A DNA stretch of 64,000 bases, taken from the NCBI GenBank assembly GCA_964354805.1, contig CAYHBD010000016.1:1-64000 (forward strand), read 5' to 3'. The translations under genes were made by a program, and so were the position numbers. Below, one piece after another: positions 3-55,334 of the stretch (within the stretch, counting starts at the first letter, position 1; each line of letters begins with the position of its first letter). This DNA is from an uncultured archaeon. GTDB lineage: Archaea > Iainarchaeota > Iainarchaeia > Iainarchaeales > GCA-2688035. The notes beneath the pieces are model-generated. The model was not told where the DNA came from and did not search any database. It saw only the letters and a list, made by a program, of their open reading frames with translations.

Positions 3-131
3 AGGGCAGGCGCTGACATTGTCCAGGTTGGAACAGCCTTTGAATCAGACAAAGGCAACCTGCAGCAGATGGCAAAGCACTTCAAGGAAATAACAACAGC
101 GGTTAAAAAAGCGGGAAAGGAAAAGAAATAA
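3..131 (+). CDS. 3' end of a gene truncated by the window edge, possibly geranylgeranylglyceryl-phosphate synthase (TIM barrel)
   Basis: Hand translation RAGADIVQVGTAFESDKGNLQQMAKHFKEITTAVKKAGKEKK*; AGADIVxVGT resembles the GGGPS C-terminal motif. Confidence 0.5.
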   Translation, partial: RAGADIVQVGTAFESDKGNLQQMAKHFKEITTAVKKAGKEKK

Positions 132-365
132 AATTTCGCTAATTCACTGCTGATTTTAATTATTGTGCCAAAGTCTACAGTGTTGCGCAATTATTTCGCA
201 AAATTCAAATTTTAATTAATTGGCAACATTATTTTTAGTTGTTTTGCCCCAAACAATCAAATCACTTTGCCCCCTGCTGCTTCTGTGAATTATGCAACAC
301 AGCACCCAGTGCATTCGTTAGAAATGTTTTTATACGCGTGCAGCTATATTATACCTGAAGAAGAT

Positions 366-695
366 ATGGCAATACTAAAAAAGCTAGCCCCCCGGTTGAC
401 GGGGGATGGGGCAACCCATGCAAGGATGCCTTATGCTGGCAAAGGGTTTCATTGGAAAAGGGCCCGGGTTGGATGGGGCGTGAGTAAGGGCAGAAAAATA
501 GCGGTATTCGATGTAACAGAATTTGCCCAGAAAGGTAACGATCAAGTAGCAAGGCCAATTTATGTCGGGCCTCAGCGTAGGGCACATTATCGAAGTTTTA
601 AACTCAGCGATCCAGCGAAACGCAGTGGTCTCCGAAATAAAGTAATTTATTCCCTTGCAAAGAATCCCAAGAGAGCTAAGAGAAAAAGAAAATAA
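366..695 (+). CDS. Hypothetical basic protein
   Basis: ORF from ATG 366; K/R-rich tail KNPKRAKRKRK; lies between repeats of the upstream gene end. Confidence 0.6.
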   Translation: MAILKKLAPRLTGDGATHARMPYAGKGFHWKRARVGWGVSKGRKIAVFDVTEFAQKGNDQVARPIYVGPQRRAHYRSFKLSDPAKRSGLRNKVIYSLAKNPKRAKRKRK

Positions 696-733
696 GCCCT
701 GCTTCCAGAGGCAACAACCAAATTCTGCTTTAT

Positions 734-795
734 TGGCGAAGCACTTCAAGGAAATAACAAGCGCAGTTAAAAAGGCGGGAAAGGAAAAGAAATAA
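734..795 (+). repeat. 62-bp imperfect copy of the gene end at 70-131; third partial copy at 811-843
   Basis: 57/62 identity by eye; encodes AKHFKEITSAVKKAGKEKK*; 811-843 encodes AVEKAGKEKR*. Confidence 0.9.
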
Positions 796-877
796 AGGGC
801 AGGCAATGCTGCTGTGGAAAAAGCCGGAAAGGAAAAAAGGTAAGGATTAAATTTTCCTCTGCGCTAATTCTTTTGTT

Positions 878-1651
878 ATGGGTGGATTGCGGAGGCTTAG
901 GAGACACGGTCAAGCTGGGCGGCCTTCTCCACAGCCAACCGAGTTTGAGCTTTTTTTCAGGCAGGTTGTTGGCGAGCAGGCGCCCGGCGAAAGAGCTGCT
1001 ATCTCAAAGATGCTTAGGCGGCGCTTTGGCAAAGAGCTTGAAAGCCCGACGACTTCTTTGCAGAGGCTGCGTTTCATTTGGAACCGGGCGGCCCCCTTCT
1101 GGAAAAAAATGGTCACTCTTGATTTAATGGAGCATGGGCTAAAGTGCATTCAAATGCACGGGAGAATACACCCAACTGACCGCATTGCAAGCATTGGCAG
1201 CGGTCTTGCCATTCAGGAGGCTTTTATTGCAAAGCGCCTTGTTCCAAACGGCTGGGTTTCATGCATTGACCTTTCGCTTAAAATGTGCAGGCTTGCAAGG
1301 CAGACAAGGGAAAAAGCGCAAGTGAGCAACATGTCTGTTTCTGCAAGAAGCGGGCGCAGGACAGGGTTGCCGGGTGCCTCACAGGACAAGGTTCTTTTGA
1401 ACCAGGCGGTGTCAGCTGAAGAAATCCATTGGCTGCCAATCCTTAAGGAAGTTAGAAGGATAATCAAGCAAAGCCCTGATGCAAGATTCATTTTTTCTTT
1501 TACAACAAAAGACATAGAGAAAACAAAAGAGCCAGTCCTCAAATCGCTGAAAGAGAACGGCTTCCAGAAAGAGTTTGCAATAAAATACATGGTCAGCGGA
1601 AAGCAAAATGCAATAATGATAATAGCAAAGCCAGTTCCATTACAAAATTAA
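878..1651 (+). CDS. Class I SAM-dependent methyltransferase with Arg-rich N-terminus
   Basis: IASIGSGLA motif I and CIDLS motif. Confidence 0.7.
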   Translation: MGGLRRLRRHGQAGRPSPQPTEFELFFRQVVGEQAPGERAAISKMLRRRFGKELESPTTSLQRLRFIWNRAAPFWKKMVTLDLMEHGLKCIQMHGRIHPTDRIASIGSGLAIQEAFIAKRLVPNGWVSCIDLSLKMCRLARQTREKAQVSNMSVSARSGRRTGLPGASQDKVLLNQAVSAEEIHWLPILKEVRRIIKQSPDARFIFSFTTKDIEKTKEPVLKSLKENGFQKEFAIKYMVSGKQNAIMIIAKPVPLQN

Positions 1652-53335: not shown

Positions 53336-53397
53336 AACTACCTAACAATTTTATGTTTGGCTTCTTTTTAAACCTTTTCCGCAACACTATTTCTTTT

Positions 53398-53473
53398 GGA
53401 CCCGTAGCCTAGTCTGGATATGGGCACTCGGCTTCGGACCGAGAGGTCGGGGGTTCGAATCCCTCCGGGTCCG
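53398..53473 (+). tRNA. tRNA-Arg(TCG)
   Basis: Cloverleaf GGACCCG...GGTTCGAATCC...CGGGTCCG; anticodon TCG. Confidence 0.95.
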
Positions 53474-53573
53474 CTACAGCTTTCTTTTTTCTAAAAAGAA
53501 AGCTGTATCAAAGAAAAAGTGGATTCGCCGAGAAAAGTTGTATCAAAAGAAAAAACATTTTCTGTGATATTTA

Positions 53574-53990
53574 ATGAAACTTGTAAGCGCTTGCCTGGCT
53601 GGATTCAACACATACTATGATGGCAGCAATAAGGCAGACAGGAAAGTGATTGAATTGGTTAAGGCAGGGAAAGCGATAGTTGTCTGCCCTGAGCAGCTTG
53701 CAGGGTTTTCAACCCCGAGAGAGAAAATGGAAATCAAGGGCTGCAGGGTTTTCACTGAAAGCGGAAAAGATGTTACCGAGCAAGTGCGGAAGGGAGCGCA
53801 GGAAGTTCTGCGAATAGCAAAATTGTTCGGTGTAAAGGAGGCGATTTTGAAGAGCAAGAGCCCGAGCTGTGGGAAAGGAAAAGTGTATGATGGAACTTTT
53901 TCCGGCAAGCTTGTGAAGGGAAACGGAATTACAGCAGAGCTTTTAATGAAGAATGGAATTAAGGTTTTGAGTGAAGAGGGATTGAAATGA
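53574..53990 (+). CDS. DUF523 / 2-thiouracil desulfurase family protein
   Basis: VSACLAG, VCPEQ..G..TPR, LKSKSPSCG. Confidence 0.92.
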   Translation: MKLVSACLAGFNTYYDGSNKADRKVIELVKAGKAIVVCPEQLAGFSTPREKMEIKGCRVFTESGKDVTEQVRKGAQEVLRIAKLFGVKEAILKSKSPSCGKGKVYDGTFSGKLVKGNGITAELLMKNGIKVLSEEGLK

Positions 53991-54712
53991 AAAACCCCAT
54001 TTGCATCTCAACAGGCTCTCTTTACAGGCTTTTTAATGATAGAAATAAAGTTATTGGCAAAATAAAGCAATTTTCGCCTCAGGGGATAGAATTGTTTTTT
54101 GATTGCCCGGAATCCCTTTTTAACTTTGAGTTAAGCAAAGAAAACCTAAATTATTTGCAGAAATTGCAATTCAATTCCATTCATGCGCCGTGGAAAAACG
54201 TTAACTATGGGGAGAATGCAGTGTCCGATTGCGTGTTGGAGGCAGTGCAAAAGCTATGTACACTGGTTGGGGCAAAGAATGTTGTTTTTCATCCAACAGG
54301 GCAGGGAATGGATTTTGGGGCATTAAATAATTACAATTTCGTGGCGTCAATTGAAAACCTGGATTGGAGGAGGGACAGCGGCAAAGCTGTTAAACAAATT
54401 GAAGCAATATTGAAAGAAAATGAATGGCTCAAATTTACTTTTGATTTTGCCCATGCGCTCACTGTTTCGCCGAATGATATTCCCTTGTATATTAGTAAAT
54501 TCAAAGATAAATTGGTTGAAATCCACCTCGCAATGTTGAATAGAGAGCTCAGAAACCATTGGTTTTTGCACAAATTTGACAACCCAAAGATGAGGGAGCT
54601 ATTGGACTATATTAAGGGCGTGAATGTTCCAATTGTTTTAGAATGCGTGGCTTCCAATGAGGGGGAAATCCAGCTCATTGAAAAGGAGATTGAATATGTA
54701 AAGAAAATTTAA
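53987..54712 (+). CDS. Xylose-isomerase-like TIM barrel protein, flanked by 14-bp direct repeats
   Basis: SIHAP, VFHP, IENL, FDFAH, EIHL. Confidence 0.8.
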   Translation: MKNPICISTGSLYRLFNDRNKVIGKIKQFSPQGIELFFDCPESLFNFELSKENLNYLQKLQFNSIHAPWKNVNYGENAVSDCVLEAVQKLCTLVGAKNVVFHPTGQGMDFGALNNYNFVASIENLDWRRDSGKAVKQIEAILKENEWLKFTFDFAHALTVSPNDIPLYISKFKDKLVEIHLAMLNRELRNHWFLHKFDNPKMRELLDYIKGVNVPIVLECVASNEGEIQLIEKEIEYVKKI

Positions 54713-54758
54713 TTGATTGCTTTAAGGTAAAGCCAAGGGATTGATTGAGGGGATTGAA

Positions 54759-55334
54759 ATGAAGGCAGGAAAAGTTGTTGAAAGGTTTTCTGTTAAAGAC
54801 AAAAATGGCAAAGTGCTGCAAGTTTTGTTTCGTTTTCCAAAAATGAATGATGCGAAGGAGGCAGCGCGTTTCATCAACAAAGCGAGGGATGAAGCGCTTT
54901 TTTTGGGAATGAGAGAGCATGAGAACCTAAAATCTGAGCGAAAGTTTTTATTTGAGCAAATCAAAAACATGCGCCAGAGGAAAGGACTTTTCTTGTTTGT
55001 TATAATAGATGCCAAAATTGTTGGCGATGCAACAATTTTGCCTCATCCTTTTGATGCTACCCCAGCCGTTGGCGAATTTGGAATCATTTTGCTGGAACAA
55101 TTCACTGAATTAGGCATTGGCTCCAAGCTGGTGCGTAAAATGATTGAATTAGCGAAAAAGAAAACGAGGTTCAAAATTATTCAGTCAGCCTATTTTGCGC
55201 CAAATAAAAGAAGCAAAAGGCTGCATGTGAAATTCGGTTTCAAGCGCTACGGCAGGCTGCCAAAGGGATGCAAATTGAAAGATGGTAAATATTGTGACCA
55301 CATGTTCGTGTATAAGGTAATTAAAAAGCTGTAA
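54759..55334 (+). CDS. GNAT family acetyltransferase
   Basis: LGIGSKL, N..SKRLH.KFGF..YG. Confidence 0.85.
   Translation: MKAGKVVERFSVKDKNGKVLQVLFRFPKMNDAKEAARFINKARDEALFLGMREHENLKSERKFLFEQIKNMRQRKGLFLFVIIDAKIVGDATILPHPFDATPAVGEFGIILLEQFTELGIGSKLVRKMIELAKKKTRFKIIQSAYFAPNKRSKRLHVKFGFKRYGRLPKGCKLKDGKYCDHMFVYKVIKKL

Follow-up and report, generated by a model that had tools for sequence, protein, structure and literature searches.

Duplicated gene ends around extra DNA in an archaeal genome and their possible origin by 3'-end displacement

The stretch of DNA analysed here, called the window below, is the first 64 kb of contig C16 from an uncultured archaeon, whose genome bin (G000) comprises 1.38 Mb in 49 contigs. 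The bin is 88.5% complete, 86% of the genome is coding, and the G+C content of the window is 44%. The window genes are archaeal in character and include those for GGGP synthase, SRP54 and a type IV prepilin peptidase, together with archaeal-type tRNAs. At six loci of the window, the 3' end of a gene or tRNA is present in more than one copy, and the copies are separated by additional DNA. These duplicated gene ends, similar structures elsewhere in the genome, and the processes that may have produced them are the subject of the present analysis. For comparison, contigs of close relatives, with 85-93% identity to the window, were taken from other samples. They are referred to as L013, L015 and L016 (a 216-kb contig from the Joint Genome Institute, JGI), L014 (a 3.7-kb JGI contig), and L017, L031 and L073 (another genome bin). 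A metagenome scan with the NTPase protein returned only three loci.

The eight repeat pairs listed in an earlier, sequence-only reading of this DNA were all confirmed, and each takes in the 3' end of a gene or tRNA (Table 1). With chance levels in the window taken from local third-order Markov simulations, 14 exact direct repeats of at least 14 nucleotides (nt) lie within 2 kb of each other, against 4.7 in the simulations (maximum 11). With 18 nt as the minimum length, the numbers are 5 and 0. Long repeat pairs therefore exceed chance. A lone 14-mer pair is not significant, because 4.7 such pairs are expected per window. At loci 3 and 6, however, both 14-mer pairs fall exactly on boundaries of gene presence and absence among close relatives.

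Table 1. Repeat pairs and associated features of the window, and gene-sized structures on other contigs (positions without a contig name refer to the window)
Feature	Position	Strand	Details
Repeat pair, locus 1	70-131/734-795		57/62 identical
Third copy of GGGP synthase tail, locus 1	811-843		shorter, more diverged
Repeat pair, locus 2	6885-6911/6939-6965		27/27 identical
Repeat pair, locus 3	7475-7488/8017-8030		14/14 identical
Repeat pair, locus 3	8026-8052/8067-8093		19/27 identical; 14 exact from 8030/8071
Repeat pair, locus 4	22976-22996/23075-23095		21/21 identical; 3' end of tRNA-Gly(GCC)
Repeat pair, locus 5	23248-23274/23334-23360		27/27 identical; 45 nt at 82%
Repeat pair, locus 6	53978-53991/54750-54763		14/14 identical
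GGGP synthase (PcrB-type) gene, 3' end	3-131	+	cut by contig start; working tail (copy 1) at 70-131
Putative insert behind new GGGP synthase tail	132-733	+	holds open reading frame (ORF) 366-695, 109 amino acids (aa)
Putatively displaced GGGP synthase tail (copy 2), different allele	734-795	+	differences from copy 1 by codon position: 0/1/4
Putatively displaced tail copy 3 and ancestral spacer	811-877	+	copy 3 at 811-843; spacer runs to methyltransferase start at 878
NTPase (DUF84) tail and second copy	6885-6965	-	tail 6939-6965; 27-nt spacer; second copy 6885-6911
Resident fast-evolving basic-protein gene	7475-8030	-	gene 7484-8029; 14-mer GGTGAAAAAAATGC at both ends
SRP54 tails	8026-8093	-	working tail 8067-8093; 23 nt; spare tail 8026-8052
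tRNA-Gly(GCC) with copy of its 3' end	22976-23147	-	tRNA 23075-23147; 78-nt insert; 21-nt copy 22976-22996
Transglutaminase-like gene tails	23243-23371	-	working tail 23334-23371; 59-nt spacer; putatively displaced older tail 23243-23285
DUF523 stop/TIM-barrel start junction and second copy	53978-54763	+	junction 53978-53991; TIM-barrel gene 53987-54712; second copy 54750-54763
Gene-sized case	C2:26176/26911
Gene-sized case	C9:29443/30208
Gene-sized case	C2:15179/14239
Gene-sized case	C42:13384/11691
Gene-sized case	C42:77435/78205
Gene-sized case	C29:40688/41451

At locus 1, the 3' fragment of the GGGP synthase gene is 95% identical to residues 218-259 of a relative's PcrB protein, and the remainder of the gene forms the end of contig C18. 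The two contig ends cover the same stretch (C18:20789-20832 and window 1-44) with 5/44 mismatches, so the bin joins two strain alleles at this point and the assembly broke where they diverge. The ORF behind the working tail has no Pfam family, no match among 30 related genomes, and was not picked by the codon-usage score; its coding status is uncertain. The first bases of the insert resemble the ancestral intergenic start. Copy 3 and the DNA up to the methyltransferase start are collinear with the working GGGP synthase tail and spacer of L013, which marks this region as the ancestral junction. Copies 2 and 1 are stacked upstream of the ancestral tail, each as a different allele. L013 holds a different 271-aa gene at this junction.

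At locus 2, the copy at 6885-6911 supplies the ribosome-binding site and the start overlap of the prepilin peptidase gene. Compared with L013, in which stop and start overlap (TAATG), the window has a 54-nt surplus with a 27-nt flank repeat. In L014, the site contains a different 52-nt filler, which is found in three assemblies and in which an L017-type NTPase tail is followed by a decayed L013-type junction, and L017 and L019 show a 7-nt gap. At locus 3, the TGA stop of the spare SRP54 tail forms the ribosome-binding site of the next gene. This spare tail matches the working-tail type of L017, and an equivalent spare tail is present in L013. The basic-protein gene between the two 14-mers of locus 3 had been read as an orphan insertion, which does not hold. 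Homologues are found at the corresponding position in L014 (239 aa) and L017 (166 aa) as well as in three further genera, and L013 is without the gene, exactly as a deletion between the 14-mers would leave it. By comparison with these relatives, the gene is conserved in place, was lost in one relative and is no recent insertion, so that at this locus the proposal fails the check on conserved position named in the sequence-only reading. Its family of very basic proteins (166-239 aa, no Pfam match) is found in the interval between SRP54 and the DUF84 NTPase in several genera, for example at 7484-8029 on the minus strand of the window, L014:1313-2032 and L017:644-1144.

The insert at locus 4 contains two hairpins, one of which belongs to a dispersed hairpin family with about 122 core copies in the genome. 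L015 shares the tRNA-Gly structure: both 21-nt copies are perfect in both genomes, and the insert is only about 85% identical. Among the 21 detected tRNAs, a duplicated 3' end was found for tRNA-Gly(GCC) only. The tRNA-Gly(GCC) of this relative (L015:7897-8040) carries a 54-nt insert with hairpin-family sequence at the anticodon-loop position and is otherwise identical to the window tRNA (23075-23147), which lacks this insert. At locus 5, the window is longer than L015 by 86 nt, and the TAA stop of L015 and the bases that follow are retained in the downstream copy. The spacer holds a perfect hairpin (approximately 23306-23331) with two other copies in the genome. The stem of this hairpin is of the purine/pyrimidine, CTTTCTTTC type; the other copies lie at C18:234-259 and C45:1-26. 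Of the three copies, two are no more than about 260 nt away from the end of a contig.

At locus 6, the second junction copy gives the GNAT gene its start and is preceded by a decayed stretch resembling the DUF523 tail. Among the relatives compared, the order DUF523-TIM-GNAT occurs in the window only. The order DUF523-GNAT is found in L016, a Logan contig and two other genera, and DUF523-TIM in L031. The TIM-barrel gene had been regarded as inserted DNA. It is indeed absent from the nearest relative, but since it is also present in another strain, loss is at least as likely, and the gene does not appear to be a recent insertion. The window GNAT (54759-55334) is 51-55% identical to the same-slot GNATs of all relatives, including one with flanking genes 90-92% identical, whereas the window DUF523 is 91% identical to that of L016. 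This difference marks the window GNAT as a foreign allele, and xenologous replacement is likely. The TIM-barrel protein itself (AP_endonuc_2-like, 53987-54712) has its closest relatives, at 57-81% identity, on metagenome contigs, one of which carries the label Paceibacterota (57%). Homologues at a greater distance (41-44%) bear the labels Nanoarchaeota and Woesearchaeota, and same-family reference genomes hold only homologues of about 30%. This distribution suggests that the TIM-barrel gene has moved among ultra-small prokaryotes.

Taken across all cases, the working and displaced tails differ at codon positions 1/2/3 in the ratio 8/17/31 (p = 0.001), and in the gene-sized subset described below in the ratio 4/10/26. 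Because the differences fall mostly at third codon positions, the copies are allelic. The structures also have a polarity. The downstream copy and its flank are collinear with the working tail and flank of relatives for GGGP synthase (L013), the transglutaminase-like gene (L015) and a methylase gene on contig C9 (L073), so the displaced, downstream copy is the ancestral gene end. Stacked alleles are represented by the three GGGP synthase tails, the L017-type spare SRP54 tail and the mixed NTPase junction of L014. In addition, close relatives show empty or differently filled sites at 5/6 loci.

A search for imperfect local duplicates detected at least six further structures of the type gene tail, cargo, displaced tail outside the window (Table 1). 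Mirror-image cases at gene starts were also found. The repeats of the gene-sized cases are 43-192 nt long with 84-95% identity, and the host genes include those for a CAAX protease, a DNA methylase, an FMN reductase and an ABC ATPase. The cargo is of accessory type: a MazE-PIN pair, an AAA_14-DUF4143 ATPase, a small winged-helix pair and several orphans, among which tblastx revealed no similarity. At the C9 methylase junction, cargo is lacking in the JGI relative and is of a different kind in the other bin. Together with the confirmed pairs and the stop-codon enrichment reported below, these cases indicate that gene-end repeats around extra DNA are real and recurrent, as had been proposed.

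Genome-wide, exact direct repeats with a length of 14 nt or more are 5-8 times as frequent at distances up to 2 kb as in each of the following 2-kb distance bins up to 20 kb. The excess forms a sharp peak at start-to-start distances of 40-70 nt. At distances of 25-85 nt there are 128 pairs, of which 106 have no other copy in the genome; 74 of these 106 have the form repeat, unrelated spacer, repeat. In this largely coding genome (86%), gene ends or intergenic DNA are touched by 55 of the 74 non-tandem structures, which are thus enriched there, and the remaining 19 are intragenic, most with periods that are multiples of three. With stop codons taken from ORFs picked by codon-usage score, 26/191 short-range pairs contain a stop codon, against about 7 expected (p = 2e-8); a start codon is contained in 12/191 (p = 0.06). 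The stop-codon enrichment predicted for repeats within 2 kb was thus found at short range, but it was absent genome-wide for exact repeats 200-2000 nt apart. In stop-containing repeats, the median extent is 12 nt before the stop and 1.5 nt past it, and the repeat runs at most 5 nt past the stop in 23/28 (p = 0.002). Convergent, tandem and divergent spacers are struck roughly in proportion to their length, with no further preference for 3' or 5' intergenic DNA; consequently, the phenomenon belongs to gene boundaries as such, and its bias towards 3' ends is moderate. Most events add a spacer of 20-55 nt and no gene, and gene 5' ends are also duplicated. The proposal of a general route for adding single genes does not describe the majority of events. 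Furthermore, a general survey of indels against the close relative showed that most indels of at least 12 nt in aligned blocks lack a flank repeat, so repeat-flanked events are not the main mode of indel formation.

From the repeats, their enrichment, polarity, allelic character and strain polymorphism, a recombination mechanism and its donors may be inferred. The repeats would be scars of 3'-end displacement by recombination anchored in a conserved gene, and later also sites of deletion, an explanation given about an even chance of being correct. In such a process, DNA of a related strain would recombine with the resident genome, with the conserved gene body as the homologous anchor. The incoming DNA would bring its own version of the last codons and the donor DNA that follows, either a short unrelated spacer of some dozens of bases or accessory genes, one or two in number. 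Its far end would join without homology slightly upstream of the resident stop codon, and the resident tail would be pushed downstream as a dead copy. The process would be homology-facilitated illegitimate recombination, or an equivalent single crossover of a circular fragment. Selection would retain only events that leave a complete upstream gene and the ribosome-binding site and start of the downstream gene, which would explain why the repeat spans the stop/start junction. A repeat boundary at the coding end is expected if the similarity of donor and recipient stops where the hypervariable spacer begins. The direct repeats would permit exact deletion of the intervening DNA, so that junctions could flip between empty and filled states among strains.

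The 3'-end displacement is the best-supported account of the polarity, stacking, allelic differences, stop-codon boundary, foreign GNAT and strain polymorphism. Of the two sources suggested in the sequence-only reading, homology-anchored DNA from relatives is the better fit, because the tail copies are allelic and the downstream copy is ancestral. The break of the contig at diverging GGGP synthase alleles, the lack of a junction motif and of recombinase genes of the families searched (apart from two tyrosine recombinases on other contigs), and the accessory nature of the cargo also speak for displacement. Several observations weigh against displacement, however. For none of the spacers was a donor sequence found. 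If a gene end is duplicated and one copy then decays, part of the third-position bias is to be expected anyway (46%): the gene-sized subset exceeds this expectation (26/40, p = 0.012), and all cases pooled do not (31/56, p = 0.10). Where the genes on both sides are conserved, ordinary homologous exchange at both ends would be expected to leave no scar, and the frequency of one-sided events is not accounted for. In many short-range repeats, the two copies match perfectly (27/27) although the nearest relative has differences within them, which calls for near-identical donors or for some other process inside one genome. The restricted sizes (spacers of 20-55 nt, periods of 40-70 nt) suggest a mechanical constraint, which displacement does not predict. 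The gene calls are derived from a heuristic of our own, so start positions are less certain than stops.

The distribution among relatives is a further difficulty of the same kind. Short-range pairs occur at 9.6 per 100 kb in G000 and 8.9 in the JGI close relative. Within the same family, the values are 3.0 (G004) and 0 (G009), and within the same order 6.0 (G020, with 25% G+C), 0 (G026) and 0 (G028). The hairpin-family core has a density of 9.1 per 100 kb in G000, 13.3 in the JGI close relative and 0-5 in the remaining genomes. A genus-specific excess that parallels hairpin density hints at a lineage-specific agent. Since the size class, the perfect repeats and the genus specificity are left without explanation by displacement, an insertion process stays a live rival for the short class.

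One form of such a process, considered unlikely, involves small insertion elements that encode no protein, or a trans-acting integrase or transposase, with a long staggered cut at gene ends that leaves a target duplication of 14-30 nt. The hairpin inserts at the tRNA-Gly and transglutaminase-like loci would be intact examples, and the other spacers would be decayed. This explanation agrees with the perfect, sharp-edged repeats, the narrow size range and the parallel with hairpin density. Moreover, flank repeats of at least 12 nt accompany 15% of hairpin-family copies against 5% of random intergenic sites, and the genome contains two stand-alone Y1 (IS200-type) transposase genes (C35:614-967 and C13:1382-1729) and no TnpB. 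However, BLAST of all spacers against the genome found source copies only for the hairpin family (about 5/74 spacers), and the rest are single-copy. Spacers fold with the same hairpin propensity as intergenic controls, and no base is conserved at either junction across the 74 sites, where every repeat differs. No constant repeat or spacer length was seen when repeats were extended with mismatches allowed (14-62 nt), a staggered cut would not end repeats at the stop, and the imperfect copies are codon-aware. Searches of the 88.5%-complete genome for Cas1 (PF01867), TnpB, serine recombinase and rve transposase gave no match. The tyrosine integrase family PF00589 matched only on C45 and C10, which hold the two tyrosine recombinases of the genome, so the earlier remark that no integrase is in view is borne out for C16. 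The inserts, 20-1700 nt with otherwise different content, have no integrase in or near them. The hairpin-linked recombinase offered as the second source does not account for the repeats, given the few hairpin-family spacers, their ordinary folding and the lack of a junction motif.

The Y1 transposase is a doubtful agent: it makes no target duplication, and its presence among relatives, which is patchy (12/31 genomes), does not track the repeat excess. The Y1-only layout in a hairpin-rich genome is reminiscent of transposases associated with repetitive extragenic palindromic (REP) sequences.

A second form of insertion would be a process distinct to the genus that sets 20-55 nt of new DNA, and sometimes whole genes, directly after stop codons while copying the last 12-30 nt. 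Such a gene-end cassette mechanism is unlikely; if true, it would give ultra-small symbiotic prokaryotes a general way to gain genes with few recombinases.

Local errors of replication or repair within one genome (slippage, template switching, or break repair with filler synthesis) are an improbable source of the short structures, to a similar degree. The 32 unique short-range pairs outside the non-tandem class look like decayed tandem duplications, spacers match a nearby flank over at least 9 nt in 39% of cases against 15% of controls, the spacer at 6912-6938 carries a weak copy of the junction, and the sequences are purine-rich. In the 74 non-tandem cases, however, the spacer is unrelated to either flank despite perfect repeats, and a search for reverse-complement templated insertion found no excess of reverse-complement copies. 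The allelic tails, cargo genes, foreign GNAT and stop-codon boundary would also remain unexplained.

For the two 14-mer pairs alone, it may be asked whether they are coincidental or convergent translation-start contexts that served only as accidental deletion substrates, which is quite improbable. Besides the number of such pairs expected per window, this explanation can draw on the frequency of the sequences involved: GGTGAAAAAAATGC is a Shine-Dalgarno sequence with ATG context, with 3 exact genome sites and 9 at no more than one mismatch, and ATTGAAATGA, the core of the other 14-mer, has 23 exact genome sites. The start contexts of locus 3 are not identical in relatives, and repeats in the 200-2000 nt range lack the stop-codon enrichment. 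Against this stand the match of both pairs to strain indel boundaries and, at locus 6, the decayed DUF523-like stretch before the second copy with a foreign GNAT after it.

Assembly artefacts of a mixed-strain metagenome bin are a very remote explanation: the bin has 49 contigs, one locus is only 70 nt away from the contig end at which two alleles meet, and 3/74 structures lie within 250 nt of contig ends (p = 0.047). However, the length of most repeats is below that of the k-mers commonly used in assembly, and a single read is longer than any of the structures. Structures of these kinds also occur in assemblies made independently from other samples (L015 tRNA-Gly, the 52-nt filler in three assemblies, the spare SRP54 tail of L013), and the JGI relative has nearly the same density.

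The 3'-end displacement favoured here has precedents in bacteria. Jackson and colleagues are said to have reported C-terminal (3'-end) displacement at rhs/cdiA-type loci in 2009. Displacement at rhs, cdiA and type VI secretion system (T6SS) effector-immunity loci has been described, with a homologous anchor and an illegitimate joint as the proposed mechanism (Kirchberger et al. 2017, PMC5361080). As in those arrays, a new 3' end with cargo lies upstream, the old end is kept as an orphan downstream, no integrase is involved, and stacking may be serial, here with three GGGP synthase tails. Unlike in those arrays, the hosts here are archaeal housekeeping genes (GGGP synthase, SRP54, NTPase, methylase, ABC ATPase), and the displaced pieces of 12-190 nt contain no gene and have no toxin or immunity function. 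The phenomenon is also genome-wide, with most events of 20-55 nt, and is not confined to polymorphic toxin loci. What is known at bacterial toxin loci is not new in itself; the novelty lies in its genome-wide occurrence at ordinary archaeal genes.

In homology-facilitated illegitimate recombination, one anchor admits adjacent foreign DNA and the other end is joined nearby without homology, which is the form proposed here. The process is known from Acinetobacter, Streptococcus and Pseudomonas; to our knowledge, it has never been shown in archaea. It is cited for naturally transformable bacteria in PMC5361080. Allelic copies fit a donor from a related genome in such recombination, and they discriminate only partly between this process and duplication followed by decay.

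Integrases, in turn, insert elements into the 3' ends of tRNA or protein genes and carry a replacement 3' end, as with e14 in icd and archaeal elements at tRNA genes. The structures described here resemble such elements in the intact target and in the old end kept as a direct repeat, and the duplication at tRNA-Gly, from the T-loop to the 3' end, has such a form. They differ in the lack of an integrase by the inserts, in inserts down to 20-80 nt, in the lack of a common attachment core, and in the involvement of only one tRNA of 21. Unlike transposons with target-site duplication, the repeats are not of fixed length, and the spacers are unrelated except for the hairpin-family copies. Unlike Cas1-type (CRISPR or casposon) integration, there is no PF01867 match in the genome, and repeat and spacer lengths vary. 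As regards REP/RAYT (REP-associated tyrosine transposase) or IS200-type elements, the genome contains two Y1 genes and a hairpin family; most spacers are not hairpins, and Y1 presence does not follow the repeat excess. In a tandem paralogue cluster of Staphylococcus aureus, the evolutionary unit is the gene 3' region, the spacer and the next 5' region (PMC2568036). The likeness is that the junction, not the gene, is the exchanged unit. The difference is that recombination there takes place among tandem paralogues, whereas here unrelated DNA is added.

The genomes of DPANN archaea are tiny and compact; stop and start codons of neighbouring genes often overlap, and few enzymes of mobile elements can be recognised. 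The gain and loss of accessory genes in them is poorly understood. In the present data, gene boundaries are sites of accessory turnover. New DNA would arrive with a replacement gene end, so that packed neighbours could keep working, and the repeats would make additions reversible. If the pattern holds across populations, a dead copy of the last codons downstream of a gene may serve as a signature of recent acquisitions and recombination hotspots in uncultured archaea and in bacteria of the Candidate Phyla Radiation. A process of bacterial toxin loci would thereby be extended to ordinary genes of another domain.

Some further differences between the window and its relatives lie outside these repeat structures. 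The 177-aa gene at 21660-22193, which matches no Pfam family, shows no similarity at the nucleotide level to its 171-aa positional counterpart in a relative of 90% identity (L015:9944-10459) and is probably another fast-evolving or replaced gene. Close relatives, and not the window, have an RHH-PIN module at the methyltransferase-epimerase junction, with no flanking repeat in the BLAST alignment, and a Pol-beta NTase/HepT module after the peptidase gene. Toxin-antitoxin modules thus come and go at the junctions of relatives (L013:15346-16023; ENA contig 9060-9693; L017:2615-2905).

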